32,000 nucleotides of DNA from Desulfobulbus propionicus DSM 2032 (GTDB lineage Bacteria > Desulfobacterota > Desulfobulbia > Desulfobulbales > Desulfobulbaceae): assembly GCF_000186885.1 (NCBI RefSeq), contig NC_014972.1, positions 1,380,001 through 1,412,000 of the forward strand, read 5' to 3'. A program made the translations under genes and the position numbers. Each line of letters begins with the position of its first letter. The first letter of the stretch is position 1. Shown one piece after another: positions 2,178 through 20,662 of the stretch. Below the pieces are notes generated by a model, which worked only from the letters and a program-made list of their open reading frames with translations, did no database searches and had not been told where the DNA came from.

Positions 2178-3071
2178 ATGCGATTCGCCATTTCCTTCAC
2201 CTTCTCTCCCGGCACCCCGCTTTGGCATATTGGCACCCAATGGCTGGGACGGGATGCCCTCAGCGGCCAGAATTTCGCACCACCCAAGGTCCTTGGCCTG
2301 GACGCCGAAACCCTGCGGGAACTGACCCGGATACCTGCCCGCCACGGCCTGCAGGCTCCTCTTGTCCCGCTGTTTCGGCTTAAACCACCTCTGACCGAGG
2401 CAGATCTGAAGGCAGCTTTGGTGGATTTTTCCAGCCGGCAGTCGCCGTTCGCTTTACCGCCCCTTGCCCTCTGCCACGTTAACCGTGCGTTCAGCCTCTG
2501 TCCCTGTCGGCATTTTCCCGCCCTCCAGGCCCTGGCCGCCCGCTGTACCCGTGCCTTCGATCGGCTGCGTGCCCCACTCAATCCGAGCGAACTGGCCAAA
2601 CACAAGGCGCAACCGCTCAGCGGCCAGGAAAAAAGGAACTTGGAGATGTGGGGGAACCCGTACGTTTTTGAGCAATACCGTTTCGCCTTTCCCTTGACCG
2701 GCCGGATGGCCGAAGGCCGTCAGAAGGAGCTGGTGCACAGTGCCCTGCAGACCTTCTTTGGTCCGGCGCTGGCCCAACCTGTCGTGCTGGACAGCCTGTA
2801 CCTTTTTGTCGAACCGGAGCACGGTCAGCCGCTCAGCGGCGTCCACCGGTTTCCCTTGACTCTGCCCTCATCCGAACCTGGGGATCGCATCAGCCATGAC
2901 CCGCAGTTCCTCGACCAAGACCTTCATTCTCGATACCAATCCTGGTCGTGGTCCTGGAGCAGCGGACCCCGTATCGTCAGATCATGCTCGCCCGGCCAAT
3001 CGTTCCCCTGTCCAACAAGGAGATCGGCTACCTGCCCGGCGACAGCCAGTCCAACGGGCTCAGCCACCTGA
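2178..3071 (+). CDS. DUF1045 (2H-phosphoesterase-like, 'phosphonate metabolism'-annotated) family protein with a probably non-native C-terminal tail
   Basis: The N-terminus MRFAISFTFSPGTPLWHIGTQWLGRDA matches the characteristic DUF1045 start. Family-like sequence ends near '...LYLFVEPEHGQPLSGVHRFPL'. The last ~60 codons (...SRYQSWSWSWSSGPRIV...) are low-complexity and read through the PhoH remnant in another frame. No obvious SD precedes the ATG. Confidence 0.7.
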   Translation: MRFAISFTFSPGTPLWHIGTQWLGRDALSGQNFAPPKVLGLDAETLRELTRIPARHGLQAPLVPLFRLKPPLTEADLKAALVDFSSRQSPFALPPLALCHVNRAFSLCPCRHFPALQALAARCTRAFDRLRAPLNPSELAKHKAQPLSGQEKRNLEMWGNPYVFEQYRFAFPLTGRMAEGRQKELVHSALQTFFGPALAQPVVLDSLYLFVEPEHGQPLSGVHRFPLTLPSSEPGDRISHDPQFLDQDLHSRYQSWSWSWSSGPRIVRSCSPGQSFPCPTRRSATCPATASPTGSAT

Positions 3072-3166: not shown

Positions 3167-3855
3167 GCCTCAAACAGTACCTTCTGTCCAATCGCTCCCC
3201 TCTCCGGACCCTGGTTCCCCTCTGCCTGGCCCTGCTACTCATGGCTGCCGCCGGTTCCCAGTCGCCGGTACTGCGTTACCGTGAGCAAACCGGAGACGAT
3301 CAGTTCATCTTCACGTGGCAGATAAACAGGGACGTTGATGGCATCACCGTGATGCAGCAGCAGGGTGACGAGATGTATAGCAGCCGCAACACTGCCGGAG
3401 GAGCGACCCAGAGCTGGCACTATGTCAAGCCGCCGGCCACCGATGTCCGGGTGGAACGCGACGGCAACCGACTGCGCTTCACCGGCCGCTTTGCCGGTGA
3501 AACGATTGACCGGATCCAGACCATCGATGGACGCCCATGGATGCAACCCCTCTCCTTCAGCCTGCAGCGGTTGGTTGGCGAAGAGCCGCAGGTCGCTCGT
3601 TTTTGGACCATCCGCCCCGATACCCTGGACGTGCTTGCCATGCAGGCGGAGACGGCGGGCAGCGAACCGGTGGCCATCGACAGCGGCGGCACCCGGAGGG
3701 CCAGCAAGGTGGTCATTCGTCCCGAGGGGTTGCTCAGCGCTTTCTGGCAGGCCGAGTACTGGTTCCGTGACGGCGACAACATGTTCCTGCAATATCGGGG
3801 AACCCACGAACCTCCCGGCACGGCCGAAACCCGGATCTGCCTGATTACCCCCTGA
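3163..3855 (+). CDS. secreted hypothetical protein (signal peptide)
   Basis: 230-aa ORF with a hydrophobic N-terminal signal (LVPLCLALLLMAAAGS) and normal, non-shadow amino-acid composition. I recognise no family. Its 3' end overlaps the convergent GT4 gene by 11 nt (3845-3855). Confidence 0.6.
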   Translation: MSLKQYLLSNRSPLRTLVPLCLALLLMAAAGSQSPVLRYREQTGDDQFIFTWQINRDVDGITVMQQQGDEMYSSRNTAGGATQSWHYVKPPATDVRVERDGNRLRFTGRFAGETIDRIQTIDGRPWMQPLSFSLQRLVGEEPQVARFWTIRPDTLDVLAMQAETAGSEPVAIDSGGTRRASKVVIRPEGLLSAFWQAEYWFRDGDNMFLQYRGTHEPPGTAETRICLITP

Positions 3856-4879
3856 CGGCACAGGCCTGGGAACATGGGGCAATGGCGTGATTGATCGCCA
3901 GATTGCCCAGGAACTGGCGGGTGCAGGCCTCCCACGAGTACCGCGCGGCCATCTCCCTGCAGGCAGTGCGGGAAAGGGTGAGCGCTCTCAGGGCCGCTCG
4001 GCCCAGATCGGCATCGAGGCAGCCGTTGATCCCTTCGCGGATCAGGTGGCGGGGGCCGGTCACCGGGTAGGCGGCCACCGGCACGCCACAGGCATTGGCC
4101 TCCAGCAGGACGAGACCAAAAGTGTCGGTCAGGCTGGGGAAGACAAACACATCCGCCGCCGCCATCAGCCGCGCCAACTGTTCGCCGTGCTGGGCACCGG
4201 TGAACCGGACCAGCGGATAGGCCCGGCGCAGACGCGAATACTCCGGCCCATCGCCGATCACCCACTTTTCTCCCGGCAGATCCAGATCCAGGAAGGCGGG
4301 CAGATTTTTTTCCGGGGCCACCCGGCCAACATAGATAAAAAGAGGCCGTTGACAATCAACGGGCAGGCCGGGACGCGGTCGGAACAGGGCGGTGTCGACG
4401 CCGCGTGACCAGGGGACCAGAGGGGCAAAGCCCCGATCCCTCAGTTCGTCGATGATGGTTGGCGCGGCCATGGTGCGGCAGGCGGCGCCATGAAAGTGTT
4501 TGAGCAGGGCATAACTGAAGGCAAGCGGCATTGGCACGCGCATCCGCAGGTATTCGGGGAAGCGGGTGTGATACGAGGTGGTGAAGGCAAGGCCAATCCG
4601 GCGGCAGGCGGATCGGGTTGCCCATCCGAGCGGTCCCTCGGTGGCGATATGCACGGCATCGGGTTGCCATTCGGCCAGCAGGCGGCGGATGGCGGCCGGA
4701 CTGGTCAGCGACAGCCTGATTTCCGGATAGGTGGGGCAGGCCACTGTTTTAAACCGGTCCGGGGTGAGGGTGAGGAGGTCGTGCCCCCAGCCGCGCAGCG
4801 TTTCCGCGGTCCGCGTGAGCGTGGTGACGACGCCGTTAATTTGGGGATGCCAGGCATCGGTGGCGATACAGATTTTCAT
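3845..4879 (-). CDS. GT4-family (GT-B, 'glycosyl transferase group 1') glycosyltransferase, SqdX/glycolipid-synthase-like
   Basis: ORF 3845..5020 trimmed to ATG 4879. MKICIATDAWHPQINGVVTTL is typical of lipid-glycosyltransferase N-termini, and the C-terminal block reads FPSLTDTFGLVLLEANACGVPVAA (the E..G....EA.A.G.PV motif). It overlaps the upstream gene by 44 nt. Confidence 0.85.
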   Translation of the reverse strand: MKICIATDAWHPQINGVVTTLTRTAETLRGWGHDLLTLTPDRFKTVACPTYPEIRLSLTSPAAIRRLLAEWQPDAVHIATEGPLGWATRSACRRIGLAFTTSYHTRFPEYLRMRVPMPLAFSYALLKHFHGAACRTMAAPTIIDELRDRGFAPLVPWSRGVDTALFRPRPGLPVDCQRPLFIYVGRVAPEKNLPAFLDLDLPGEKWVIGDGPEYSRLRRAYPLVRFTGAQHGEQLARLMAAADVFVFPSLTDTFGLVLLEANACGVPVAAYPVTGPRHLIREGINGCLDADLGRAALRALTLSRTACREMAARYSWEACTRQFLGNLAINHAIAPCSQACAVRG

Positions 4880-5648
4880 GTTGAACGGAAACCGCCTCGC
4901 GCAGGGGTTGATGGGTGGGCCATTCGATGATTCCCAGTTGGCCACAGGAATTTTCGGCCAAGGCTGTGCAGCTTTCCACCCAGTCGCCGGTGTTGGTGTA
5001 GAGCGTTGTGCCGATTTCACGAATCCCGGCCCGATGGATATGGCCGCAGATCAGGCCATCCACCCGGTGGGCCGCCGCCTCCCTGGCCACCAGGGCATCG
5101 AATTGGCCGATGCAATTGACCGCCCTTTTGGTCTGGTGTTTCAGCCAGGCAGAGAGGGTGCGGGGTCCGCGCTTTTTTGCAGGGAGTCGGATCGTGCACC
5201 AGCGGTTGCAGCGCAGCAGCAGGGCGTAGATCACCGAGCCCGTCGTGGCCAGCCAGGGACAGTGGCGGATCACCGGGTCAAAGGTATCGCCGTGCAGCAC
5301 CAGATAGCGGCGCCCGTCCACGGTCTGGTGGATGGCCGTGTTCTGGATGCGGATGTTGCTGATGGTGAGGCCGTCGAAGGCGCGCAGCAGGTGATCGTGG
5401 TTGCCGGGCAGGTAGATGACCTGGGTGCCGCCTGCCGCCTTAGCCAGCACGGTCTGGACGATGCGGTCATTGACCGCCGGCCAGTGCCAGGCCTTGTTCG
5501 CCTGGACCAGGTCAAAAATATCGCCGACCAGGTAAAGAAAATCGGAGTCGGTGTGGAGCAGGAAATCGAGCACCTGTTCGTTTTTCAGGCACCTCGTGCC
5601 CAGGTGGAGATCGGAGATCCAGATGGATCGGAAATGGTGCTGCGGCAT
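4836..5648 (-). CDS. LpxH-family (UDP-2,3-diacylglucosamine diphosphatase-like) calcineurin-type metallophosphoesterase
   Basis: The metallophosphoesterase motif series is complete: SDLHLG, VGDIFD, PGNHDH, LHGDTFD, CGHIHR. A strong SD (AAAGGAGG) ends about 7 nt upstream of ATG 5648. I cannot tell whether this is the housekeeping lpxH or a paralogue. Confidence 0.85.
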   Translation of the reverse strand: MPQHHFRSIWISDLHLGTRCLKNEQVLDFLLHTDSDFLYLVGDIFDLVQANKAWHWPAVNDRIVQTVLAKAAGGTQVIYLPGNHDHLLRAFDGLTISNIRIQNTAIHQTVDGRRYLVLHGDTFDPVIRHCPWLATTGSVIYALLLRCNRWCTIRLPAKKRGPRTLSAWLKHQTKRAVNCIGQFDALVAREAAAHRVDGLICGHIHRAGIREIGTTLYTNTGDWVESCTALAENSCGQLGIIEWPTHQPLREAVSVQHENLYRHRCLASPN

Positions 5649-5821
5649 GGTGCGCCCTCCTTTGGGTTGTGCCGATGCGGGTCCGGGGCAGTTGGTGCCG
5701 GCCCTGCACGTCGATCGCCCGCCTTGTTTGCACCCTAACCGGGCAGCGTTACCCTTTGATCAGGGAGCTGTTTTTTTCCGATTGAAGGTTTGTTGCGGTT
5801 TGATGAGCCGAGCCGCGGTGG

Positions 5822-6874
5822 CTAAATACGATGCTGATGGACCTGGAAGGAGAGGATGGCGCCGGTGACCATGCTGCGGCCAAAATGGAGGAACAGGATG
5901 AGCCAGAGGGCCTTGAGGCCAAGGATGAGCAGCGGGTCGAGCAGCACCCGCAGGCCAGCGGCCATGTCGGGTCGGGGCAGACTGGGCTGGGGCAGGAGCA
6001 CACAGAGCAGGGCGCCAAAGACCATGGCCGCCACGGCCATCTTCTGATAGGCGGTGATGGCCGAGAATCCGCGAAAATCGGCGCGCAGCATCTCGGAGAG
6101 CACGCGCCAGATTTGGGAAACCATGAGGCTCAGCAGAAAGGCGCTCCGGTACCTGCCCTGCAGGAACCAATGGCAGGCGACCAGGCCGGTGACCGTATAG
6201 AGCAGGCAGGTCAGCCCCTGCACCGGCACCAGTTTGACCCCGGCCAGCCCGCCCTCGTAGACGGCCTTCTTGGTGGGGGCGGTGAAGACCACCGCCATCC
6301 GGTCGAGCAGTCTGCGGGCCAGAGGACCGCACTGATCCAGCGGTTTGCCGTAGCAGCAGCCAAAACTGAGACAGGCCAGGCGGCCAAGCCCCTCGCCGAT
6401 GATGTAGCCGATGGCCAGGGCGGCCAGCACGATCTGCCCGCTCAGCCGGGGCGTTGCCGTCAGCCAGCAGCCGAGATTGATCGCCAGGATGAGCACGGGG
6501 GCACTCACCAGCCCACAGAAAAAGGCCCCTCCGATGGTGAAGGTGTACCCTTTCTTTTCCACCAGGCGGGCAATCCGCCGGCTTGCCGGGACACAGAGCC
6601 CGACGATCAGCGTCAAGAGTGCCAGCAGCGGCACCATGGCCATGTGGGCCGCCTGCCCAAGGACGAGCACAAAGACCAGGCCGACGATGGCGGCACTGGC
6701 CAGAATCAGCCCGTACCAGGTGAAGTTGATGCCCTGCCAAAGGCTGCCTTCACCTCGGCGGACCGGCACGGCGGCCAGCACCTGAAAACGATCGGAGGGG
6801 AGATACCGCCAGCCAAGCGTGATGGCCACGGCGAACAGGGCCGCGGTGGTGCAGAGAAAGAGCGCTTCGGTCAT
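5822..6874 (-). CDS. Lgt-family (prolipoprotein diacylglyceryl transferase-like) polytopic membrane protein
   Basis: Multi-TM protein containing 'GEGLGRLACLSFGCCYGKP', the Lgt-family G-R-x-G-C...GCC-x-G signature. The track ORF starts at TTG 6883, but I prefer ATG 6874 (MTEALFL...). There is no clear SD. It lies 33 nt downstream of the PSD-type gene. Confidence 0.75.
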   Translation of the reverse strand: MTEALFLCTTAALFAVAITLGWRYLPSDRFQVLAAVPVRRGEGSLWQGINFTWYGLILASAAIVGLVFVLVLGQAAHMAMVPLLALLTLIVGLCVPASRRIARLVEKKGYTFTIGGAFFCGLVSAPVLILAINLGCWLTATPRLSGQIVLAALAIGYIIGEGLGRLACLSFGCCYGKPLDQCGPLARRLLDRMAVVFTAPTKKAVYEGGLAGVKLVPVQGLTCLLYTVTGLVACHWFLQGRYRSAFLLSLMVSQIWRVLSEMLRADFRGFSAITAYQKMAVAAMVFGALLCVLLPQPSLPRPDMAAGLRVLLDPLLILGLKALWLILFLHFGRSMVTGAILSFQVHQHRI

Positions 6875-6907
6875 AATGATCAAGAGGATGATGTGATCAA
6901 GTCGGTT

Positions 6908-7909
6908 TCACAACCGCCGTTTGCCGGCAATGGTTGAACGTACCCGGACATCGGTTTCCACCACCGGCCGTCCCAGGCCCAGCGAGAATCGACTCAGGAC
7001 ATCGGCGCGCCGCCGGTTGCACACCAGATCGTCGCTGAAGGTGACCACCTCCCGTTGAAAGAGGAGGATGTCGGTGGAACTGCCCGGCCGGTACAAGCTT
7101 TTCGGGCAACCCTTCTCCAACCGCATGCCCTTGGCGATCGGCTGCGGCGCGTCGTAGGCGTGGGTCGAGTAGCACTGGACGATGTCCCCGATCATCAGGG
7201 CCACCACCTCGATCATCGCCACCAGACCAACCTGGGTGCCCCCCTGTACGTCGGTGTCGATGATGGTCACCACCCGCCGGTTCTTGGCATGCAGGGAGGC
7301 CAGGGCAATCTGCGCCCGCGGGTTGCAGGAGTGGTACTGGCCGTCGATCTGGTAGAAGTCGATCACCTCGCCGCTCACCGGCACATGGTTGTAGTGATAT
7401 TTGTCCGGGGTCAGACGGAAGATGGCGAAATCGCCGCCAACGAAAAACGGAGGCCAGGGCAAATCCTCGCCCAGCAGTTCCGGGGCGGAGAAAAATTTTT
7501 CCTTGATGAACAGCTCCGGTGTCTCCTCCAGGGAACCGATCAGCACCTTGGCGTCGGCGGGCGCGACGATGGTCTCGTTGGCCTCGTCCATGGGACGGCA
7601 CTGCCAGTAGCGGATCTGCCGTTCAAACACCTGCCGGGGGGTGGTGAAACTGGCAGCCGGGGCTACACACTCCCGCCAGTCCACCCCCATTCGCTGCAGC
7701 AGTGCCGGACCCCGACGGCTATCCACCGGCAGGGTGCAGTCGAACTGGAGATACCCGAGCACACTGGACATCCGCTCCGAGGTCAGAGCGCGGAACAGGC
7801 TGGGTGCCTGCTCACGCACCCGGTTGTAGAGCAGGTCGATGAACCGGTCGGCGAACAGGTGTTCGCTGACGATTTCCCCTGTTTCGCGGACGATGTACTG
7901 ATGCTGCAT
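6908..7909 (-). CDS. psd: phosphatidylserine decarboxylase family proenzyme (long N-terminal type)
   Basis: Track ORF 6908..8365 trimmed to ATG 7909 (RBS GGGAGAAG), because the upstream 152 codons overlap the preceding gene out of frame. MQHQYIVRETGEIVSEHLFADRFIDLLY is the N-terminus of the long bacterial PSD type. 'YRPGSSTDILLF' aligns with the self-cleavage G-S-(S/T) site that generates the pyruvoyl group. Confidence 0.85.
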   Translation of the reverse strand: MQHQYIVRETGEIVSEHLFADRFIDLLYNRVREQAPSLFRALTSERMSSVLGYLQFDCTLPVDSRRGPALLQRMGVDWRECVAPAASFTTPRQVFERQIRYWQCRPMDEANETIVAPADAKVLIGSLEETPELFIKEKFFSAPELLGEDLPWPPFFVGGDFAIFRLTPDKYHYNHVPVSGEVIDFYQIDGQYHSCNPRAQIALASLHAKNRRVVTIIDTDVQGGTQVGLVAMIEVVALMIGDIVQCYSTHAYDAPQPIAKGMRLEKGCPKSLYRPGSSTDILLFQREVVTFSDDLVCNRRRADVLSRFSLGLGRPVVETDVRVRSTIAGKRRL

Positions 7910-7920
7910 GGATCTTCTCC

Positions 7921-10278
7921 CTATGCGGTGACAGGGCCGTGCTGCTGTTCGAGATGGACAATCAGCAGGGCGAGCAATATGAGCAGATGGATCTCCCGGG
8001 CCGAGGCAGAGCCGTTCACCACCCGATGGCCGGCTTCGCGGATGAACAGCGGGGCAGGCACGCTGCCGAGCAACCGCTCCTTGAGGGCGCCAACGGCCTG
8101 ATCGGTGCACCCCTCCAAGCGAACGCCATCCGTCATCAGGGTTTCCAAGCCGTCGTGCAGGTGCCGCTGGCACAGATCGGTGCGGTAATAGTTCTCGGCG
8201 GCCTGGTTGAAGGCTTGGGTGCCCACCCGCATGGGATCGGTCTCCCGCCCCAGGGTGGTGAGGATGTCGCCGGTCAGCCGGGCCGCTGCCGTGGGTTCGG
8301 TGCCCTCCAGCATGGCGTCGACACGGTCGAGGAGCGACACCGCCTCCTGGCCGTCCATGGCGCATTGCTGCCGGAGCAGCGCCAGACAGGCCCGGTGATA
8401 GGCGGCCACTTCGATGCGCAGGTATCCCCGGTAGCGGCGACTGGGCCGCTGCCGGTCCGCCAGGGCGAGGATTCGGCGCAGCAGGGTGTTGCGGCTGTCC
8501 GCCCGGATAAACACCGTGGGTACACCGATGGCGGTGGCAAAAAAGATCTGCCGCCGCTCGCTCTCGGTGCAGGGGTCGTCGGGGATATCGGCGTGGCGGA
8601 CAGTGCCCGCAAGCACCCAGCGATAGGCCAGGCGGGTGACCAGGGTCTGCAGGTCGACGGCCAGGGCAAAGGTCGGGCCGAGGTCGGGAAAGAGCGAATA
8701 GTGCCGGCCCTCGAATCCGGAGAAACCAAAGGCGGCCAGGGTCCGCATCCGGTAGGGCAGGTAGATCGCCATGCGGCTGTCATAGACCCCCATCTCGGTC
8801 AGATCCTGTTTCAGCCGCTCTTGGTTCCCCATGACCCCGTCCAGGGCCGGGCTCTGCTCGACGCTCTGCAGGGCTACCAGGTAATCGATCAGCCGGACGT
8901 CGGGCAGGAAGTCACCGCGCAGCCGTAGCAGGGTGCTGGTCAACCGGTCGAACCACTGGGGGCCCACCGGGGTGAAGCTGTGACCGCAGAACCGCAGCGC
9001 CGCCTTCTTCTTCCATCGGCGCCACAGCATGCGCAGGTGGGTGTAGTCCAGTTCATGGGGCAAATAGCCCATCACCTTTTCCGGATGGAAGTCGCTGAAG
9101 CTCAGGCGATGGGGCGCGGCCGAGCAGGTGGTGACAAAGAGCGGCAGGAAGTGCTCGACGATCTTGATCACCAGATCGCCGAAGTACTTTTCGCAGATCG
9201 CGCCTTCCGGGCGCTGGTACCACCCGCTGAGCAGGCGACTGCCCAGGGTGATGTGGGTGCCGTTGTTGGCCAGGGAAGTGGAACTGGTGTTGGGGAGCAC
9301 CACCAGATTGTTGACGATGATCCCGGCCTCCTTGAGTTTGGCGATGGTGTTGAGCTGACTGCGGGACAGGGTGCGGTGGCAGAGCCCCATATACGCCTTC
9401 TTCTTCTCGCCGCGCGGCCAGCCGGACAGGCAGGGGTTGACAAACAGCTCGCGGTAGAACTGATCGGAGATGAGCTCGTTGAGGGCCTTCTGGCGGGCCG
9501 GCGGGTTGGGCGCCAGATACAGGCGGCACTGCTGGCCGTGGTGCTCCAGGCGGAACGCCTGGTTGGCATACTGGATGAGCAGTTGCAGGATCAGGAACCG
9601 GCGGCTGGTTTCCCGGGCGGTGCTGCGGCCGGGGAGGGTGGCCGCATCGCCGCTGGCCAAGGAAAAGCTGGTCACTTCGGGCGAACAGTTGTCGCTGATC
9701 AGGTGAGCCATCAGCCGCTCCCCGGTCTGGAGGAGCAGCGGCTCGGCAGGGTCGGCCTGCCCGAGGGCATCGGCCAGCGCCAGTTTGAGCAGATAGCTGA
9801 CCGGCACCCGTAGCCAGGGCTCTCCCTCGCGGGAAAAGAGAAAGGAATCGATATCCTGGCGTCGAGGACCCGCTGGATTGGCCTTGTCGGCCAGCAGATC
9901 GTGGTGCAGGATGGAGGCGGCATGGGTGGAGAGCAGGCGGCGGGGGAATCTGACCCAGGAGTTCTCCCAGATCTGGGTCTGCTGCGCCCCGAGAAAGGCA
10001 TCGAGATCGGCCAGCAGATGGGGACTGAGGTCGCCGCGCCGGGCCCGCAGGGTCAGGTTGTTGTAGTAGCGCGAGCCGAGGATGGTCAGGGGGAGATCGA
10101 CCTCGGTGGATCGGCCTGCAACGGCCACCTGAAACTCGTTTTCCACCCCCACGGTGACATCACCACCGGTGAACGGTTGCGGGTTGGCTTCCCGCTGCAG
10201 GTGCAGCCGGAACGGCTCGGTTCGGTGCAGCAACTCGTTCTGGTCTCCGGAGATCGGGGTCGGCAGGGATACGGTCAT
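7921..10278 (-). CDS. large (785 aa) soluble protein of unknown function; no family recognised
   Basis: Long ORF with normal, non-shadow composition. It ends 11 nt before the PSD-type gene on the same strand. The only faint motif hints are 'VGVENEFQV' near the N-terminus and 'LANNGTHITLGS' mid-protein, reminiscent of carboxylate-amine ligase (GCS2/GshA-like) metal and substrate blocks. I see no TM helices or signal peptide. Confidence 0.8.
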   Translation of the reverse strand: MTVSLPTPISGDQNELLHRTEPFRLHLQREANPQPFTGGDVTVGVENEFQVAVAGRSTEVDLPLTILGSRYYNNLTLRARRGDLSPHLLADLDAFLGAQQTQIWENSWVRFPRRLLSTHAASILHHDLLADKANPAGPRRQDIDSFLFSREGEPWLRVPVSYLLKLALADALGQADPAEPLLLQTGERLMAHLISDNCSPEVTSFSLASGDAATLPGRSTARETSRRFLILQLLIQYANQAFRLEHHGQQCRLYLAPNPPARQKALNELISDQFYRELFVNPCLSGWPRGEKKKAYMGLCHRTLSRSQLNTIAKLKEAGIIVNNLVVLPNTSSTSLANNGTHITLGSRLLSGWYQRPEGAICEKYFGDLVIKIVEHFLPLFVTTCSAAPHRLSFSDFHPEKVMGYLPHELDYTHLRMLWRRWKKKAALRFCGHSFTPVGPQWFDRLTSTLLRLRGDFLPDVRLIDYLVALQSVEQSPALDGVMGNQERLKQDLTEMGVYDSRMAIYLPYRMRTLAAFGFSGFEGRHYSLFPDLGPTFALAVDLQTLVTRLAYRWVLAGTVRHADIPDDPCTESERRQIFFATAIGVPTVFIRADSRNTLLRRILALADRQRPSRRYRGYLRIEVAAYHRACLALLRQQCAMDGQEAVSLLDRVDAMLEGTEPTAAARLTGDILTTLGRETDPMRVGTQAFNQAAENYYRTDLCQRHLHDGLETLMTDGVRLEGCTDQAVGALKERLLGSVPAPLFIREAGHRVVNGSASAREIHLLILLALLIVHLEQQHGPVTA

Positions 10279-10372
10279 CGCTCGTTGTCGGTTGCAGGGA
10301 TCGGTATCGTTCGCTGGCCAGCAGCATAGCGGGGGCGTGTTTGCTTCCGGCTTTGATCCTGTCAGGTTTGCG

Positions 10373-12295
10373 TCAGGAAGCGATCATGTCGGACAGCAGC
10401 CGGACTGGCGTCACCTGCTCGCGTTCACCCTTCCTGCCGGTCTCAAGCTCACCGGTCACCGCAGGTGCAGAATCCGTCATGATCGCGGCCTCGGGCAGGA
10501 ATCCATCCTCTGTACTCTCCAGGCGCATCGCCTCCAATTCCCTGACGTTGCCGTCGAGGAGGTCGCCGAGCTGCAGGGCAATCTCTTCGGCGTATCGGCG
10601 GGCATCGGCAGAAAACTGCAGTACCCCAGCCGCCGCCGCATGCACCTCGGTGATGCGGGTCGACACCTCCCTGGTATTCTCTTCGGTGGCGGCGCTCAGG
10701 GCAACGATGCCTCCGGTCAGTTCGCGCTGCCCGTCCACGGCCGAGCCAATGGCAGCGGTTACCTGGTGCAGTTGCTCCGCCCCGTGTTCCAGGGTGTCGA
10801 TCGAGGTGATGAACGAGGTGCAGATCGCATTGATGGCCTCAATCTTGGTCAGGACGTCCTGGGTGGCATGGGCCGTATTCTGGGAGAGTTTCTTGACCTC
10901 TTCGGCGACCACGGCAAATCCGCGCCCATGCTCGCCGGCCTTGGCCGCTTCAATGGTGGCATTGATCGCCAGGATGCGGGTCTGCACGGTGATGGCCTGC
11001 ACCGTGGCCACGATGCCGTCAATTTCAGCCACCGACCGGCTCAGACCTTCAAGCATGTGGCGGGCCTGGTCGATTTCCGCCCGCATGGCCCTCTCCTCCC
11101 GGTTTTGGACCGCCAACTGCTGGTGGATGCCATCCACCACCGTGCTGATCTGCTGGGATGCCGCGCTCACCTGGTCGGTCCGCTTGGCAGTATCGCCGGC
11201 CAGCACCGCCACATTCTCCGCGGCCTGTTTGGTTGCCTCGGCCACTCCCTGCAGGGTATGGGACATGGTGGCCATCTGCCCGGCCCGCTCATTGAGGCGG
11301 TGGATGGCCTCGGTCATTGTCCCGACCAGGGTTTCAATCCGCCGCCGGTCTTTGGCCTTGCTTGCCTCGAGCTGTTGCAGGGACAGCAGGGCTTCCCGGA
11401 AAGAGCCGATGGCCCGGGCCAGCACCCCGATCTGATCGCGTCGCCGAGACCAGGGTATCTCGGGGAACTGGCCGGCGCTCAACGCTTCCACCGCCCGCGT
11501 CAGGTGATGCAGCGGCCGTTCAACGATGCTCCGGGTGAGGAAGAAGAGGACCAGCACATTAGCTGCAATCGCCGCCAGGCCAACCCCGAAACTGAAGCGC
11601 CGCTGCTGCCTGCTGGCCTCCTGCATGCGCTGCTCCTGCTGGGCGATCTGATCGATGTAGCCCAGAATCTCGGTGCGGCTTTTTTCCGCCTCGATGCTTT
11701 TATCGGCGGCAAGGCCGCGCAAACGGCCAATGCCTTCCTCTATCGCCGTTGGACGGCTTGCCTCGCTCTGCACCGTGGCCAGCAGCCGTTGCCGGTCCGT
11801 CTCGGCTTGGCTGCTCACCAGGAGAAGCCTGTCGATATCGGCGGTAAAAGCGCCTCCGGCATCAAAGAGGCCATAACTCAGCACCGGTTGATCGTTCTCG
11901 ACGGTGACCACCATCAGCCCATTGGCCAGATCGCGCTTCTCGGTGCGCGAGTAGAGCGCGGCGTAGCTTTCCCGACCGGAGAGGCGTTGGCGCTCTTGGA
12001 TCTGAAATTGTCGTTCGACCTGCGTAAGAACGCTGGCCTTCGGGTCGGTGGTGAACAGTTTCGGCAGCCCCATGAACTCGTTTTGCAAGGTGACGATCGT
12101 CTGGCGCAGATTGGCATCCACCTGGTCCCGGATCGCCAGCACATCCGCCATCATCCCTTCCAGCCGGGCGGTGGCCCGGTGATTGACGAACAACAGAGCT
12201 CCGATGCAACAGTTGGAGGCCAGGGCGACACCCAGTAACAGTTTGCATCCCACGGTCAGCCAGCCGGTGCCGGCGGTCGATGTTTTTCTGGTCAT
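10373..12295 (-). CDS. methyl-accepting chemotaxis protein (2 TM helices, ~200-aa periplasmic sensor, HAMP, MCP signalling domain)
   Basis: The MCP hairpin core reads 'QTRILAINATIEAAKAGEHGRGFAVVAEEVKKLSQNT'. The HAMP-like segment reads 'RPLHHLTRAVEALSAGQF...IGVLARAIGSF'. The track start (12325) is a GTG. ATG 12295 gives MTRKTSTAG... and forms an ATGA overlap with the upstream stop. Confidence 0.9.
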   Translation of the reverse strand: MTRKTSTAGTGWLTVGCKLLLGVALASNCCIGALLFVNHRATARLEGMMADVLAIRDQVDANLRQTIVTLQNEFMGLPKLFTTDPKASVLTQVERQFQIQERQRLSGRESYAALYSRTEKRDLANGLMVVTVENDQPVLSYGLFDAGGAFTADIDRLLLVSSQAETDRQRLLATVQSEASRPTAIEEGIGRLRGLAADKSIEAEKSRTEILGYIDQIAQQEQRMQEASRQQRRFSFGVGLAAIAANVLVLFFLTRSIVERPLHHLTRAVEALSAGQFPEIPWSRRRDQIGVLARAIGSFREALLSLQQLEASKAKDRRRIETLVGTMTEAIHRLNERAGQMATMSHTLQGVAEATKQAAENVAVLAGDTAKRTDQVSAASQQISTVVDGIHQQLAVQNREERAMRAEIDQARHMLEGLSRSVAEIDGIVATVQAITVQTRILAINATIEAAKAGEHGRGFAVVAEEVKKLSQNTAHATQDVLTKIEAINAICTSFITSIDTLEHGAEQLHQVTAAIGSAVDGQRELTGGIVALSAATEENTREVSTRITEVHAAAAGVLQFSADARRYAEEIALQLGDLLDGNVRELEAMRLESTEDGFLPEAAIMTDSAPAVTGELETGRKGEREQVTPVRLLSDMIAS

Positions 12296-14097
12296 AACAG
12301 GGAGGTTGTTTCTGGTTGAGGACACAGCAAGGCACGGTGTGTTTCACTGTCCTGTGGTTCGCGTAGAACGCTTGGGGATGCTAGTTCGTGGATATAAAGG
12401 CTGCTGCCGGCGATCCGTTTGGCGCGGTGTTTGGCGAACGACGCCTCTTCCGAAATATCGATGGGGCAGCGGTGCAACGAAGGACACACCACCACCGCGC
12501 CCACCGAAAGGGTCATGGTGCCATAGCGCTGTTCCCGCCCTTCCCGATCCAGCGCGACGATGACACTGCCGATGTGGCCGTTGTACAGACCACCGATGCT
12601 TTCATCGAATTGGCGGAGGATGCGCTCGACAATCTGTTGCCAGCCACCACTGCGAAAGATGACCACAAAATCGTCACCACCGATGTGGCCGATGAAATCG
12701 GTCTGGTCGTCGATATTGGCGGTGAGCAGTTCCGCCAGGAAGCGCAGCACCTTGTCGCCCCGGCTGAAGCCGAAAAAGTCGTTGAATGGTTTGAAGTTGT
12801 CGAGGTCGAAATAGCAGACGGTGAACGGAACATCGGCGCGGAACAATTTCTGCAGCTGTTGCTGGATCGGCACGTTGCCCGGCAGCATGGTCAACGGGTT
12901 GGCATGCCGGGCGCGGCTGACCTGCAATTTGGTGATTTCATGGAGGAGATCGATCAACCGCCCCGTACCGGCCAGTTGGCCGTCATCGAGGATGATGAAC
13001 TCATCGGTGTGGATGTTCAAGGAAGTGGTCAAGCGGTAGCTGGCCTCCTCCAATGACATGCGCTTGTCCACCTGCATGACGTTGCGGTTGATGAAACGGA
13101 GGATCGGCTGCTTGCCATAGAGTTCCTTGCCGTAGAGACTGGCATAGAGGTTCATGAACTCACGGCGCAGGACCAGACCCAACACCTCGTTTTCATGGAC
13201 AACGACGATCGATTCCAGATCGGGTGTCGAGGTGAACAGCGCCCCCACCTCCAAAACCTTGGCCGTCGCCTGGACGGAAACGGCCGGCCGCACCAGCATC
13301 TCCATGGCTGGAGATTCCTCCTCGGCCTGGCGGAGTTCCTTCCTGAACAACCTGGAGGCAATGGTCACCGGCGGTATCGGCACCGGCCGGCCAAAGTAGT
13401 AGCCCTGGAGCATTTCCACCCCGATCTTGCGCAGGGTGGCATACTCCCCCTCGGTCTCCACGCCTTCGGTGATTACCCTGCATCCCAGGGCGGTGGCCGT
13501 TTTCAGAATGGTGGACACAAACTGCTGTTTGGTGCGGTCCTGATCGACCCCCTGAATGAAATGACGGTCGATCTTGACGATATCCGGCCGGATCTCGGAC
13601 CAGAGCTTGAGCCCCGAATACCCGGCGCCCAGATCGTCGAGGGCCACCCTAAACCCCATCTCCTGGTAATGGATCATCGCCTGCTGCATCAGCCGGATAT
13701 CCTCGACCGGATGGGTTTCGGTCAGTTCGATAATCAGCTGGGAAGGGTTGAGCCGGGCCTGCTCGACCAATTCCAAGGTCAGACCTTCGCGAAAATGCTC
13801 ATGCGTCAGGCTGTAGGGGTCGACGTTGATGAACAGCCGGCCGGGCAGGTTGAGTTGGGCGAAACGATGAATGACCATTCTTCGGCAGAGCAGGTCGAGT
13901 TCAGCCAGCCGATCGGCCTTGGTCGCCGCCTCGAATAGACGGGTGGGCGAATAGAGCACGGTGTTGACCGGACCGCGTACCAGGCCTTCATAGCCATAAA
14001 TTTGCCGGGTTTGCAGGTGGATGATCGGTTGAAAATGGACGGTGAGTTTCTGCTGCCGGATCACCGTCTCCAGGAGGGTTTCTGTTTTCTGGTCCAT
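12292..14097 (-). CDS. EAL - tandem CBS - GGDEF(GGDDF variant) c-di-GMP signalling protein
   Basis: EAL-domain motifs are present: YEGLVR, IELTE, DDLGAGYSGL, KIDRHF, EGVETE. Two CBS-like modules follow (…IVVVHENEVLGLVLRREF…, …FIILDDGQLAGTGRLIDLL…). The GGDEF domain reads 'YFDLDNFKPFNDFFGFSRGD...FIGHIGGDDFVVIF'. There is no RxxD I-site just upstream of GGDDF. Confidence 0.9.
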   Translation of the reverse strand: MDQKTETLLETVIRQQKLTVHFQPIIHLQTRQIYGYEGLVRGPVNTVLYSPTRLFEAATKADRLAELDLLCRRMVIHRFAQLNLPGRLFINVDPYSLTHEHFREGLTLELVEQARLNPSQLIIELTETHPVEDIRLMQQAMIHYQEMGFRVALDDLGAGYSGLKLWSEIRPDIVKIDRHFIQGVDQDRTKQQFVSTILKTATALGCRVITEGVETEGEYATLRKIGVEMLQGYYFGRPVPIPPVTIASRLFRKELRQAEEESPAMEMLVRPAVSVQATAKVLEVGALFTSTPDLESIVVVHENEVLGLVLRREFMNLYASLYGKELYGKQPILRFINRNVMQVDKRMSLEEASYRLTTSLNIHTDEFIILDDGQLAGTGRLIDLLHEITKLQVSRARHANPLTMLPGNVPIQQQLQKLFRADVPFTVCYFDLDNFKPFNDFFGFSRGDKVLRFLAELLTANIDDQTDFIGHIGGDDFVVIFRSGGWQQIVERILRQFDESIGGLYNGHIGSVIVALDREGREQRYGTMTLSVGAVVVCPSLHRCPIDISEEASFAKHRAKRIAGSSLYIHELASPSVLREPQDSETHRALLCPQPETTSLL

Positions 14098-14677
14098 GGT
14101 CCTGAGGGTAACTATTTACTTGAATGCCTTGCCGCGTAAGCATTTTCAGGCATTGGCCTGTGCAATGAGTGTTTCTACCGACCTTGTGTTACGCTTGGAT
14201 TAACTTTTGGTTGGAGGTTGGTTTACTCCCATCCAGCCATCGAGGGAGTATTTCAGGTTGGGTTTCCGCAAGCATTCATGAGTACGGCTGAGCGAATGTC
14301 GCCGGTACCAGCCGCAGCGTCATGACAGTGACGCCGACCACCTTTCCGGAGGCAACCAGGAACTTTCCAATCCAGGAGGGGAGGAAAAGGGCTAATATCT
14401 TTGTTTTTTCAAGATGTTGGTCTGGGTGAAAACCGGATGGAAATATTTTTATCTTTTATATTCAGATGATAACTAATTTTATATTGAATTCGTTTTTTTC
14501 TATACCCGGTCTTCTGGCCGGTTTGTGCTCCCGTTCGGTTTATCTGTAATTTGATATTGGCTGGCGATGCAAAATCGGGCCTGTCAGCTCTACATCTCTT
14601 TTCATTGAGTGTGCACGCTGGTAAGTTCTATACGCAGCAGAGGGAGACAACGTAAATCTTCACCACGGGAGATTGTC
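14098..14677. promoter_or_regulatory. 580-bp AT-rich divergent intergenic region (promoter region for the minus-strand signalling/lipid array and the plus-strand copper module)
   Basis: No credible ORF on either strand. Composition drops sharply: the 60-nt line at 14401 has 18/60 G+C and the line at 14461 has 20/60. One possible sigma70-like pair lies upstream of the copper genes, TTGAGT (14605-14610) with TATACG (14630-14635) at a 19-nt spacer. A 7-bp inverted repeat AATGCCT/AGGCATT lies at 14123-14154. The individual promoter elements are not secure. Confidence 0.5.
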
Positions 14678-15031
14678 ATGAACGAAGCCCTGGCACGGAG
14701 TTTTTTGCAGGCGGTCGTATTTTTTCTCTTCCTCCTGTGCGCACCATTCTCGTTGTTCAGTTCATCCAGTTGGTCTCAATCCGGCTCAGAAACCTCGGTG
14801 GCCATACGAGCAACCCCATTTGTGCCGCCAGCCCTTTCCTATGCCTCTGTTTTTGAGAACTATCATGGCTACCAGGATCAAGAGGTCGCTTCCTGGCTGG
14901 AAGCCAACGAAACCGTTGGACACATTGGTGGCTGGCGGTCTTACCTTGAAGAAGCATCCCAATCTCAACAAGATCAAATACCTCCGGCCGAAGACGCTCA
15001 CCACCCTTCCGGACATGGAGGCAAACCATGA
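14678..15031 (+). CDS. small secreted protein with a His-rich C-terminal tail; putative periplasmic copper-module accessory protein
   Basis: Track ORF 14609..15031 trimmed to ATG 14678 (GGGAG 6 nt upstream). It has a hydrophobic signal-like N-terminus (AVVFFLFLLCAPFSLF) and a conserved-looking 'WLEANETVGHIGGWRSYLEE' segment. The tail reads 'DAHHPSGHGGKP'. An ATGA overlap links it to the downstream TolC-like gene. Confidence 0.6.
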   Translation: MNEALARSFLQAVVFFLFLLCAPFSLFSSSSWSQSGSETSVAIRATPFVPPALSYASVFENYHGYQDQEVASWLEANETVGHIGGWRSYLEEASQSQQDQIPPAEDAHHPSGHGGKP

Positions 15032-16461
15032 GACTTTATTGCCTATCCCCACCATCCTTCTATGTTTTTTTGCTGACCCTGTTGTGCCTCTCCGGGTGCG
15101 CGCGGGTAAATTTCGAAGAAACCTTGACTCGGACCAACCAGGCAGCTGCGGAGTTTACCGATGGCAACCTTGCCTTGGCGCAAACAGCTGAACAACGCGC
15201 TTTCAATACAAAAACAGCGGAAACACTGCTTGCTCAACCTGTGAACCAGCAAGAAGCTGTGCATCTTGCCTTGGTCAACGACCCTGCCATGCAGGCCATG
15301 CTGGCCCAACATTGGTCGGATGCAGCCCGTGCGGCGCAATCAGGTCGCATGGCCAACCCCCTTCTGGTCTTTGAACGCACAACGTTGGCGGACGAGATTG
15401 AATATGAACGTTTGCTGGCATTTGGCCTGCTCGACGTGCTGACCTTGCCGTTCCGTTATGCCAGCGCCCAACGCCGTATCGAACAGTCGCAGGTGCGACT
15501 CGCCATGGATGTGGTGGACAAGGTCACCCAGGTCCGTCAGTCGTGGGTGAGGGCTGTGGCTGCGCAACAACAGCTCAATTATGCACGGCAAGTGAATGAG
15601 GTCGGCGAGATCAGTGCCGAACTCGCCCGTCGCATGCAGCGGGTTGGGAACTTCAACCGGTTGCAGCGAGCCCGGCAGCAGGCCTTCTATGCCGATGCGG
15701 CAACCCAATGGGCTTTGGCGCAACAGCATGCCATGGCGACTCGGGAAGGGCTGGTTCGTGTTCTCGGGCTTTCGGACGACCAGGAAAAAAAACTCAAGCT
15801 GCCGGAAAGGCTGCCTGATTTGCCCGAAGCTCCAAGGGGGCCGGAAGAGGTTGGCAAGGCCGCACAGAGAGGACGATTGGATATTCAATTGGCCAAGACA
15901 GCCTTTGCCGCGGCAGCCAAAGAGCAAGATTTGACCTTGATCACCAGCCTGACGGATATCGAGCTTGGGGTTCGTTACGATACCGTCTTCGATGATGCGG
16001 CCGGCACCCGTGATAATCGGAAGGGGTATGAAATAACGGTGCGTTTGCCTGTGTTTGACTGGGGAGATATGCAACGTGATGCCATGGATGCTCAGACCTT
16101 GGCCGCGGCCAACCAGTTGGAGGCGACCGTGCGCGCTGCCGGCTCCCAACTGCGGGAAACCTATGCCGCTTACCGCACGGCCTACGATGTAGCCAGACAT
16201 TATCGCGACGAGGTCCTGCCGTTGCGCAAGGTGATCTCCGAAGAGAATCTGCTCCGTTATAACGGCATGCTGATAGGAGTGTTCGAGTTGCTGGCCGACA
16301 CGCGGGATCAGATCGACACAGTCAGTGCCGCCATCAATACGCAGCAGGATTTTTGGTTGACCAACGCTGCCTTGCAGGCAGTCATCATAGGCACCCCTTC
16401 CATGGTGCAGGCTGGAAAAGAAACGGGAAAAATCCGTCAACGGGCCGAGCAGCCGCATTGA
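15028..16461 (+). CDS. TolC/OEP-family outer membrane efflux lipoprotein
   Basis: It has a lipobox (LLCLSGC) and two OEP-type repeat halves with long helical segments (…RRIEQSQVRLAMDVVDKVTQVRQSWVRAVAAQQQLNYARQ… and …AANQLEATVRAAGSQLRETYAAYRTAYDVARHYRDEVLPL…). It is translationally coupled to the small upstream gene. Confidence 0.85.
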   Translation: MRLYCLSPPSFYVFLLTLLCLSGCARVNFEETLTRTNQAAAEFTDGNLALAQTAEQRAFNTKTAETLLAQPVNQQEAVHLALVNDPAMQAMLAQHWSDAARAAQSGRMANPLLVFERTTLADEIEYERLLAFGLLDVLTLPFRYASAQRRIEQSQVRLAMDVVDKVTQVRQSWVRAVAAQQQLNYARQVNEVGEISAELARRMQRVGNFNRLQRARQQAFYADAATQWALAQQHAMATREGLVRVLGLSDDQEKKLKLPERLPDLPEAPRGPEEVGKAAQRGRLDIQLAKTAFAAAAKEQDLTLITSLTDIELGVRYDTVFDDAAGTRDNRKGYEITVRLPVFDWGDMQRDAMDAQTLAAANQLEATVRAAGSQLRETYAAYRTAYDVARHYRDEVLPLRKVISEENLLRYNGMLIGVFELLADTRDQIDTVSAAINTQQDFWLTNAALQAVIIGTPSMVQAGKETGKIRQRAEQPH

Positions 16462-16495
16462 GCGCAGGGAAAGACAGAGAGTTAAAGGAAGATCG

Positions 16496-17908
16496 ATGAC
16501 AACAAGAAGAACCTTTTTGAAAGCAGCCGGTCTCGCCGGCGGGGCGGTGGCCGTAGCGATGGTCAACCGCGCGGCCTTGGCCGCCCTGCCGGAGCCCGTG
16601 GTCCAGCAACAAACCGAAACCATGCCACCGCTGTTTCCCGATACCGGGCGGCCTTACAATCCGGTGGTAACGCTGAATGGCTGGACCCTGCCGTGGCGCA
16701 TGAACAACGGAGTCAAGGAGTTTCACCTGGTGGCTGAACCGGTGGTGCGGGAGATGGCTCCGGGATTCAAGGCCCATCTTTGGGGGTATAACGGCCAGAG
16801 TCCAGGTCCGACCATCGAGGTCGTCGAAGGAGACCGCGTCCGCATCTTTGTCACCAACCGGCTGCCAGAACACACTTCCATTCATTGGCATGGCCAGCGT
16901 CTTCCCAATGGGATGGATGGCGTATCCGGCCTGACCCAGCCGGCGATCAAACCCGGCCAGACCTATGTCTATGAGTTTGTCGCACGTCGTCCCGGAACCT
17001 TCATGTATCATCCCCATGCCGATGAAATGACGCAGATGGCCATGGGCATGATGGGGTCTTGGGTGACGCATCCCAAGGAAAAGCATCCACTCATTGGCGA
17101 GGTCGATAGGGATTTCATTTTTCTGCTCAACGCCTACGACATCGAACCGGGCAGCTACACCCCCAAGATCATGACCATGCTCGATTTCAACCTCTGGAGT
17201 TGGAACAGTCGCATTTTCCCAGGTATTGACTCGCTCAATGTTCGGCTGAACGATAGGGTGCGGGTGCGTATCGGCAACCTGACCATGACCAACCATCCGA
17301 TTCATCTGCATGGCCATGAATTTCAAGTGACCGGCACCGATGGCGGACCAGTGCCATTGTCGGCACGCTGGCCCGAAGTCACCACGGATATTGCCGTCGG
17401 CCAGATGCGGCAAATCGAATTTATCGCCGATGAAGAGGGTGATTGGGCCTTTCACTGCCATAAAAGCCATCACACGATGAATGCCATGGGGCATGACGTG
17501 CCGACAATGATTGGTGTCGATCATCGGGGGCTGAGCAAGAAAATCTCCCAGCTCATCCCTGATTACATGGTGATGGGGGAACGAGGCATGGCCGATATGA
17601 CAGAAATGGAGATGCCCCTTCCTGATAACACCGTGCCGATGATGACAGGGGAAGGGCCGTTCGGCTCTGTCGAGATGGGCGGGATGTTCAGTGTCGTCAA
17701 GGTGCGGTCTGGCCAGAAGCCAAACGATTACTCGAATCCCGGATGGTTCAAGCATCCCAAGGGAACAAGAGCCTTTCAGTATAAGAAAAAAATTAAAGAA
17801 CCAACCCGCTCCCGGTCTGCGGGGCGACAGTCCATGCCTCGCACGTCGAAACCTGCCGAGCCTGTCGAGGTGCGCATCCGCAAGCCGATGCGACATATGG
17901 ATCATTGA
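16496..17908 (+). CDS. Tat-exported multicopper oxidase (copper-resistance type)
   Basis: The twin-arginine signal reads MTTRRTFLKAAGLAGG. The four Cu-ligand blocks are HWHG, YHPHAD, HPIHLHGHEF and HCHKSHHTMNAMG. There are Met-rich stretches (EMTQMAMGMMG; DYMVMGERGMADMTEMEMPLPDNTVPMM). The RBS is AAGGAAG. Confidence 0.9.
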   Translation: MTTRRTFLKAAGLAGGAVAVAMVNRAALAALPEPVVQQQTETMPPLFPDTGRPYNPVVTLNGWTLPWRMNNGVKEFHLVAEPVVREMAPGFKAHLWGYNGQSPGPTIEVVEGDRVRIFVTNRLPEHTSIHWHGQRLPNGMDGVSGLTQPAIKPGQTYVYEFVARRPGTFMYHPHADEMTQMAMGMMGSWVTHPKEKHPLIGEVDRDFIFLLNAYDIEPGSYTPKIMTMLDFNLWSWNSRIFPGIDSLNVRLNDRVRVRIGNLTMTNHPIHLHGHEFQVTGTDGGPVPLSARWPEVTTDIAVGQMRQIEFIADEEGDWAFHCHKSHHTMNAMGHDVPTMIGVDHRGLSKKISQLIPDYMVMGERGMADMTEMEMPLPDNTVPMMTGEGPFGSVEMGGMFSVVKVRSGQKPNDYSNPGWFKHPKGTRAFQYKKKIKEPTRSRSAGRQSMPRTSKPAEPVEVRIRKPMRHMDH

Positions 17909-17990
17909 GTCATCGAGGAGGACGTATTTTCAAGATGTTATCCCGTGCTAACGAAGTCAAGCGAATTGTTCTTTGCAAAGGAGGCCACGC

Positions 17991-20656: not shown

Positions 20657-20662
20657 GGCGCC

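Follow-up and report, generated by a model that had tools for sequence, protein, structure and literature searches.

What function can be assigned to a protein of 785 amino acids (aa) that matches no described family and is encoded directly upstream of two genes for lipid enzymes? This question is raised by a locus of Desulfobulbus propionicus DSM 2032, which we analyzed within a 32,000-nt stretch of DNA (NCBI RefSeq assembly GCF_000186885.1, contig NC_014972.1, positions 1,380,001 to 1,412,000 of the forward strand). The whole of this stretch is called the window, and its numbering is used for all nucleotide positions below. The protein, for which we use the label X785, is encoded at 7921..10278 on the minus strand. 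The open reading frame (ORF) list of the window, an AlphaFold2 (AF2) model, and Foldseek and hhalign comparisons suggest that X785 is probably a highly divergent, predicted ATP/Mg-dependent carboxylate-amine ligase of the glutamate-cysteine ligase (GCL) superfamily. The X785 gene opens a conserved module of three genes, in which it is followed by genes for a phosphatidylserine decarboxylase-like (PSD-like) protein and an Lgt-like protein, and the module is likely to be a lipid head-group pathway tied to phosphate limitation.

Fold and conserved residues of X785

The X785 ORF starts with ATG and, as a preliminary description of this DNA had stated, is a genuine coding sequence: its coordinates and length of 785 aa agreed with the ORF list, and full length was kept in homologues of 34–97% identity. 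The same description had called the protein an orphan, which holds for its annotation, all homologues being unnamed or “hypothetical”, but not for its sequence, because more than 2,900 homologues were found at E ≤ 1e-3 among the scored candidates. In a library of 1.8 billion proteins, 827 representatives of 50%-identity clusters matched X785, many of the listed ones being fragments. The nearest relatives were from Desulfobulbus (a metagenome protein, 97% identity; D. elongatus, 74%), and a divergent clade recovered by the homologue search included proteins labelled Gammaproteobacteria/Acidiferrobacterales. No domain had been assignable to X785 from the letters, and none was assigned by sequence searches: there was no family match in Pfam or NCBIfam at E ≤ 0.1, and searches of PDB sequences with the protein and with the full family profile gave noise or nothing.

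The fold was predicted from two AF2 models. The first, based on 36 sequences, had a mean predicted local distance difference test score (pLDDT) of 78.6, with core regions 304–337 and 402–530 poorly predicted, and Foldseek found no significant match to it; Dop, PafA and type III glutamine synthetase (GSIII) appeared amid noise. The second model, based on a 126-sequence alignment that took in the divergent clade, reached a pLDDT of 94.2 and a predicted template modelling (TM) score of 0.95. The eight best PDB matches of this model were all GCL, GshF, PafA or Dop structures. The best was chain A of E. coli γ-glutamylcysteine synthetase (2d32_A; E 7e-3, probability 1.00, TM 0.47), and chains B and D of the same entry were matched with probabilities of 0.96 and 0.87. 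The remaining matches were PafA 4bjr_B (0.97, TM 0.44), GshF 3ln7 (0.92), Francisella GshA 3nzt (0.77), Dop 7oy3_A (0.72) and yeast GCL 3ig5 (0.51), whereas from rank 9 onward the matches were unrelated folds with a probability of 0.02. The E-values are marginal, yet the superfamily is consistent across the top matches, and we are confident that the predicted fold of X785 is that of the GCL superfamily.

In the predicted layout, a catalytic core (residues ~36–560) is interrupted by insertions at ~60–190 and ~205–335 and followed by an all-helical C-terminal domain of about 230 residues (~560–785). Within this domain, helix 758–776 (HLLILLALLIVHL; window 7951–8007) has a Kyte-Doolittle 19-residue mean of 1.82, is modelled as a helix with pLDDT >90 and is semi-conserved in hydrophobicity among homologues. 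The earlier statement that X785 has no transmembrane segment is correct in that this helix is short for a classical transmembrane helix, but it passes over the hydrophobicity; the helix may lie buried in the core, or it may serve in membrane association or as an anchor.

Motif conservation was assessed in 126 sequences of the X785 family, down to 34% identity. Invariant residues were G44, E46, E48, D196, N197, P200, E201, H301, N338, G340, H342, S347, E523 and R525, together with about 45–50 further positions. Five motifs, all read from the minus strand, were delineated. Motif 1, G44-V-E46-N-E48-F-Q-V (10126..10149), forms the first β-strand, and its E-x-E pair would provide putative Mg/ATP ligands. 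Motif 2, D196-N197-x-S-P200-E201-x-x-S204 (9667..9693), in which S204 is also invariant, is a candidate for the strand carrying a second metal-binding Glu. Motif 3, N338-N-G340-T-H342-I-T-L-G346-S347 (9238..9267), is the His strand, and motif 4, H376-F-L-P-L-F-V-x-T-x-S-A-A-P389-x-R391 (9106..9153), is the helix and loop that follow it. Motif 5, G521-F-E523-G-R525-H-Y-S528 (8695..8718), is the E-x-R strand, with G521 and S528 likewise invariant. Motifs 1 and 3 contain the two stretches that had been singled out as faintly ligase-like, GVENEFQV and NNGTHITLG; they were located at residues 44–51 and 338–346, and G44, E46, E48, N338, G340 and H342 within them are invariant.

A profile of YbdK was prepared from 120 homologues, all with PF04107. 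It was shallow (effective number of sequences, Neff, ~2.2), because the homologues retrieved were all from Enterobacterales and of ≥62% identity. When full-length profiles were compared, the sole match between X785 and YbdK covered 15 columns, HFLPLFVTTCSAAPH against YbdK RFVPHFIALSASSPY (E 0.017). Motif 4 is paired with YbdK R156-F-V-P-H-F-I-A-L-S-A-S-S-P169-Y, a pairing that recurred when segments were compared, and by eye GshA has L-F-G-A-S-P-A at the corresponding place. In the segment test, hhalign scores were compared with those of 100 column shuffles. Residues 30–70 of X785 scored 24.1 against YbdK 1–35 (shuffles, 11.5±2.2; none of 100 reached the score), residues 330–400 scored 18.6 against YbdK 132–175 (13.4±2.2; 3 of 100), and residues 500–600 scored 23.5 against YbdK 177–302 (14.6±2.8; none of 100). 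The three segments are co-linear with the order in YbdK, a weak but consistent similarity between the profiles. In these alignments, X785 G44-V-E46-N-E48-F-Q50 was placed on YbdK G15-I-E17-L-E19-L-Q21, G340-T-H342-I-T-L-G346 on G134-Q-H136-V-H-V-G140, and, with both the 280–600 and the 500–600 segments, F-E523-G-R525 on V-E237-V-R239. X785 carries E46-x-E48, E201, H342 and E523-x-R525 in an order that appears to correspond to that of E27/E29, E67, H150 and E328/R330 of E. coli GshA (positions checked on the sequence), residues that reportedly act as Mg ligands. Four of five of these X785 sites align with YbdK equivalents; E201, which is without alignment support, would by its place in the order correspond to GshA E67 and YbdK E60.

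Comparison with the known members places X785 apart from each of them. The GCL enzymes (GshA 2d32, 3nzt and 3ig5, and the N-domain of GshF 3ln7) are the best structural matches and appear to share the ordered E-x-E, E, H and E-x-R residues, and the same reaction, ATP-dependent amide formation onto cysteine, is predicted for X785. However, there is no similarity at the level of hidden Markov models (HMMs), GCL has 518 aa and X785 has 785 aa with its long insertions and C-terminal helical domain, and X785 has its gene in a lipid operon, not beside gshB, and mostly in anaerobes. A profile-profile signal could be measured for one family only, YbdK/GCS2 (PF04107), the shared segments being the E-x-E strand, the G-x-H-x-x-x-G strand with the S-x-x-P helix, and the E-x-R strand with its helix. 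In contrast to X785, YbdK is a compact single domain of ~370 aa in which 119 residues, instead of 296, separate the E-x-E pair from the His; the larger spacing in X785 is due to the long insertions and the C-terminal helical domain. X785 falls below any HMMER threshold for this family, with no PF04107 match, and its genomic context differs. PafA and Dop (4bjr, 4b0t and 7oy3) share the superfamily fold, but their substrates are proteins and their genes accompany those of Pup and the proteasome, neighbours that did not recur around X785 in the ORF clustering of its loci. Since X785 fails HMM membership for GshA, GCS2 and PafA/Dop, it would represent a new family within the GCL superfamily.

A three-gene module and its phosphate-related neighbours

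To describe the genomic context of X785, 82 loci were fetched from genomes and metagenomes, and neighbours were counted over 81 of them by tblastn and all-against-all clustering of ORFs. The only general neighbours were the PSD-like gene (70 of 81 loci) and the Lgt-like gene (67 of 81). Both lie downstream of X785 on the same strand, and the PSD-like gene precedes the Lgt-like gene in virtually all loci whose flanking sequence is long enough; the loci that lacked one of them were mostly contigs ending before these genes. The module was found in Desulfobulbales, Desulfuromonadales/Geobacter, Syntrophales, Syntrophobacterales, Desulfobacterales, Nitrospirota, Nitrospinota and SAR324. In the window, the X785 stop codon TAG (7921–7923) is followed by the 11 nt ggagaagatcc, which include a GGAG Shine-Dalgarno sequence, and then, at 7909, by the ATG that starts the PSD-like gene; the gap between the PSD-like and Lgt-like genes is ~24 nt. 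The preliminary description had noted the 11-nt gap, which we verified on the sequence, and had read it as co-translation and functional linkage. The near-universal synteny supports the linkage, but the link is better described as co-transcription in an operon or translational coupling.

The PSD-like gene (6908..7909, minus strand, preceded by the GGAG ribosome-binding site) encodes a 333-aa protein assigned to the pyruvoyl-dependent decarboxylases (PF02666, E 5e-34). Its best NCBIfam score was 123 bits against a cut-off of 371, and all nine PSD/ASD models remained below their cut-offs. Compared with E. coli Psd, it has PGSST for LG-ST, PAD for PADG and YHxxHxP for YHRVHMP, features kept in the 70 cluster members. 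Since the Gly-Ser cleavage site and the Asp, His and Ser residues are retained, the protein is predicted to be an active pyruvoyl decarboxylase. The Lgt-like gene (5822..6883, minus strand; true start possibly ATG 6874) encodes an integral membrane protein of ~350 aa assigned to the diacylglyceryl transferases (PF01790, E 1.7e-10), which scored 26.8 bits with TIGR00544 against a cut-off of 118.9. Equivalents of E. coli Lgt R143, G154 and R239 (G-R-L...G and W-R...E...R) are kept in the 67 members; we take R143 and R239 to bind the lipid phosphate and G154 to be a signature residue. By contrast, H103, N146 and E151 are each replaced by Cys, and F-G-C-C-Y-G is invariant. Both partners thus share with the canonical E. 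coli enzymes the G-S self-cleavage site and D/H/S triad of Psd and the R143/R239 equivalents of Lgt, but we propose below that they act on a small thiol and on a non-phospholipid head group. Because both fall far below the equivalog cut-offs, they look like paralogues with a new role. The preliminary description had suggested lipid head-group chemistry for X785; the lipid partners support this, although the Lgt-like partner points to a thioether-linked, phosphorus-free lipid and not to cytidine diphosphate-diacylglycerol chemistry. A DksA/TraR-type zinc-finger protein (PF21157 and PF01258) was also encoded near the module in 13 loci (e.g., L021:7996–8409), and in at least loci L021, L027, L051, L081 and L082 its gene separates the PSD-like gene from the Lgt-like gene.

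At least one gene of a phosphate-starvation type was present within 8 kb of the module in 43 of the 81 loci. These genes encode PstS (10 loci; TIGR00975, 415 bits, above the cut-off), a PhoB-like regulator (13 loci; best model PhoB, 243 bits, below the cut-off of 296), PIN-PhoH (13 loci), a PlcP-like protein (10 loci), an Agt-like family 4 glycosyltransferase (GT4; 12 loci) and a fusion of a PHP-type phosphoesterase with GT4 (10 loci). In the window, a 270-aa LpxH/PlcP-like metallophosphoesterase (4836..5648, minus strand; PF00149) is a candidate phospholipase C-type lipid-remodelling enzyme; its matches to LpxH models are weak and do not come near the cut-offs, and its counterpart adjoins the module in 10 loci. 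The Agt-like GT4 gene (3845..4879, minus strand; PF13692, PF00534 and PF13439) has its likely start at ATG 4879, overlapping the end of the metallophosphoesterase gene, and its best NCBIfam similarities were lipid glycosyltransferases, all below cut-off. The two genes were paired in 10 of the 12 loci carrying GT4, and in other Desulfobulbales, as in the window, the pair stands directly after the module. By analogy, this arrangement would be that of a putative PlcP-Agt lipid-remodelling pair. The PHP-GT4 fusion, a protein of ~810 aa with the phosphoesterase at its N-terminus (e.g., L035:418–2844), was observed in Geobacter/Desulfuromonadales-type loci (L035, L055, L059, L062, L063, L065, L070, L071, L072 and L080) and may be the single-protein counterpart of the pair in the window.

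Upstream regions were also searched for regulatory repeats. A Pho-box-like direct repeat, TKTCAC-N5-TKTCAC (11-bp period), was found in 19 of 73 regions compared with 4.0±1.8 in shuffled sequences, and at other spacings the half-sites were repeated in 5–13 regions. Examples are L038 (TTCGCAGGAAATTCACCGGTTCTTCACT), L026 (CTTCACCGAATCTTCACC) and L048, and in some regions three copies stand in tandem. Further neighbours were seen in Desulfuromonas carbonis (L001:1–9737), where a 601-aa OlsF-like bifunctional acyltransferase (PF19576 and PF13444), an alkaline phosphatase, PPK2 and a CHAD protein are encoded before the module on the opposite strand, and where the Lgt-like gene is flanked by a 53-aa ORF and a gene for a DUF2062 protein.

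A proposed phosphorus-free aminolipid and its alternatives

Considering the predicted activities of the three proteins, we postulate the following pathway. X785 would couple the γ-carboxyl group of Glu to the amino group of Cys, yielding γ-Glu-Cys or a close analogue. The Lgt-like enzyme would then transfer the diradylglyceryl group of phosphatidylglycerol (PG) to the thiol of this N-acylated Cys, as Lgt does to the lipobox Cys of proteins; this step would release glycerol-1-phosphate, so that phosphorus could be recovered. Finally, the PSD-like enzyme would remove the free α-carboxyl group from the lipid-bound glutamyl residue, a terminal amino acid whose amine is also free, as PSD does from phosphatidylserine. 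The product would be S-diradylglyceryl-N-(4-aminobutanoyl)cysteine, a zwitterionic substitute for phosphatidylethanolamine (PE) with the head group C7H14N2O3S. Alternatively, the first two steps may be exchanged, the ligase acting on lipid-bound cysteine. Like the PlcP-Agt, BtaAB and OlsBA/OlsF systems, the module is proposed to replace phospholipids with phosphorus-free lipids under Pho control. It differs from them in that none of the enzyme families is shared, the predicted lipid is sulfur-linked and derived from a dipeptide, and the donor would be PG itself rather than diacylglycerol (DAG) and an activated head group.

A lipid of this composition has been described. Desulfatibacillum alkenivorans PF2803T grown with 0.5–1.5 µM phosphate replaces PE, PG and cardiolipin (CL) with glucuronosyl (GlcA) lipids and with BACys, sulfur-containing aminolipids whose head-group fragment is C7H13O3N2S+ (m/z 205.064) (Ding et al., PMC11181052). 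The name BACys, for “N-butyramide cysteine” glycerols, is tentative and rests on an MS2 (tandem mass spectrometry) assignment, and the paper names no genes; the lipid cores, DAG, acyletherglycerol (AEG) and dietherglycerol (DEG), are the same set as those of PG and PE in this organism (PMC11181052). Our literature search for genes assigned to BACys or for Lgt-like lipid enzymes found none. Decarboxylated γ-Glu-Cys is C7H14N2O3S, and the calculated mass of its thiol-minus-hydride cation is 205.0641. The full module is present in D. alkenivorans DSM 16219 (L079), which we take to be the type strain PF2803T. In this locus, two paralogous PF01645 glutamate-synthase-region proteins and a GAF-ANTAR regulator (L079:2896–7566) precede the module; these neighbours may point to a connection with glutamate or nitrogen metabolism.

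Several results count against the interpretation of X785 as a ligase and of the module as the source of BACys. With 36 members of the X785 family, ligase families were absent from the Pfam results even at E ≤ 10, and a 79-column sub-profile around the His motif found nothing among PDB sequences. Segment 185–215, which contains D-N-x-S-P-E and E201, gave no signal against the YbdK profile, and hhalign comparison of the X785 profile with single YbdK or GshA sequences was uninformative, GshA giving no signal. The fold leaves the substrates unfixed, as it is also that of PafA and of the hydrolase Dop. The BACys structure that was published and the product proposed here are isomers, and the link to BACys consists of a match in composition and co-occurrence in one organism, D. 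alkenivorans, near whose module locus no phosphate genes were found. As for the Pho-box-like repeat, only its spacing specificity is independent evidence, because the half-site was derived from the same upstream regions, and the 94-nt gap upstream of X785 in the window itself contains no such repeat.

These points leave room for other explanations, among which a module of the same fold and lipid function with another product has to be weighed most carefully. X785 might join a different acid and amine, or act on a lipid-bound head group, in which case the product of the module would be some other phosphorus-free aminolipid, and BACys would depend on other genes. The fold gives no substrate specificity, the Lgt-like protein without H103, N146 and E151 and with an invariant Cys-Cys pair may use an unusual acceptor or donor, and the module is spread over many lineages with uncharacterized lipids; the connection with BACys through a single organism and an elemental composition leaves the same opening. 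Nevertheless, amide formation to Cys, S-diacylglyceryl transfer and α-decarboxylation together explain all of C7H14N2O3S, the top structural match is specifically a γ-glutamylcysteine synthetase, and we know of no other orphan lipid that would require exactly these three enzymes. We therefore regard a different aminolipid as unlikely, though worth serious attention. Much the same fold would also suit a PafA/Dop-like ligase or amidase that acts on a peptide or protein, for example in the tagging or untagging of lysine, or a head-group hydrolase. PafA and Dop are among the top matches of the second model (4bjr, 0.97; 7oy3, 0.72) and alone represented the superfamily in the search with the first, poorer one, and D-N-x-S-P-E-x-x-S of X785 looks to our eye like D-H-x-H-P-E-Y-S-T-P-E of PafA/Dop. 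This possibility is very unlikely in our judgement, since GshA-type enzymes rank higher in Foldseek and the co-linear sequence signal is that of YbdK/GCS2. A Pup-like protein modification was rejected, as no Pup, proteasome or protein-modification genes recurred in the ORF clustering of the 81 loci.

The Lgt-like partner allows the module to be read as an alternative system of lipoprotein maturation under phosphate starvation, in which an Lgt paralogue would lipidate proteins when PG is scarce, and X785 and the PSD-like protein would serve to make a different donor or to modify the product. To our knowledge, the Lgt family has so far been associated only with the lipidation of proteins; moreover, the conserved arginines suggest the usual kind of lipid donor, and the module is associated with the Pho regulon. 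However, at 26.8 bits the Lgt-like protein stays far short of the Lgt cut-off of 118.9 bits and is without H103, N146 and E151, protein lipidation offers no obvious task for a ligase or a decarboxylase, and neither lipoprotein signal peptidase nor Lnt was recurrent nearby in the ORF clustering, all of which makes both this role for the Lgt paralogue and the accompanying roles for X785 and the PSD-like protein highly improbable. That X785 has lost catalysis and keeps only the fold, as a scaffold or regulator, is hardly credible: no sequence model recognizes it, and insertions and a helical domain absent from canonical ligases make up about 45% of its length, but the invariance of E-x-E, H, E-x-R and about 50 positions down to 34% identity is the pattern of an active enzyme.

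Returning to the pathway proposed above, we consider it likely that the module builds a lipid head group and is tied to phosphate limitation. That X785 is a ligase and that its module makes a phosphorus-free thioether aminolipid under phosphate scarcity, with the product as proposed, is in our view an evenly balanced proposition when taken as one statement. The specific assignment of BACys as the product is tentative and at best close to even. Slightly more doubtful is the broad form of the proposal, in which the three genes would constitute the complete pathway for BACys-type thioether dipeptide lipids, and these lipids would serve throughout Desulfobacterota, Nitrospirota and related anaerobes when phosphate is limiting.

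Surroundings of the module and significance

The window has several further features. A DUF1045 protein is encoded at 2178..3071 on the plus strand (PF06299, E 1e-43); its membership in the module is uncertain, and the family recurs in 11 related loci and in L002. DUF1045 proteins are often found in phosphonate-utilization operons. Upstream of X785 on the same strand are a methyl-accepting chemotaxis protein (MCP) with HAMP and MCPsignal domains (10373–12325, minus strand) and an EAL-CBS-GGDEF protein (12292–14097, minus strand), with an overlap of 34 nt between their frames. Since the stop codon of the MCP lies just 94 nt before the X785 start, transcription could read through. The GC content is 0.49 at 14001–15000 compared with 0.58–0.68 for most of the window, and a copper/efflux-type cluster at 15028–25241 encodes an outer membrane efflux protein (OEP), a multicopper oxidase, a HlyD/CusB-like adaptor, an AcrB-family resistance-nodulation-division (RND) pump and a second OEP. 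A scan of the window with Rfam found no RNA families, and promoter and terminator predictions in 3400–10500 were not above those in shuffled sequences.

As a whole, these results give a predicted fold and a probable reaction class to a large unnamed family, with thousands of members in sulfate and metal reducers, syntrophs and nitrite oxidizers, and define a compact three-gene module tied to phosphate starvation. They provide candidate genes for an orphan class of lipids discovered in 2024, the “sulfur-and-nitrogen-for-phosphorus” lipids, and the module may allow phosphorus stress in anoxic sediments to be traced by a marker gene. If the proposed pathway is correct, X785 would be the first relative of GCL dedicated to the synthesis of membrane lipids, its partners would be the first enzyme of the Lgt family that lipidates a small molecule and the first of the PSD family that acts on a non-phospholipid, and the published head group of BACys would be revised to a 4-aminobutanoyl-cysteine amide. 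The known chemistry of the GCL, Lgt and PSD families would thereby be extended.

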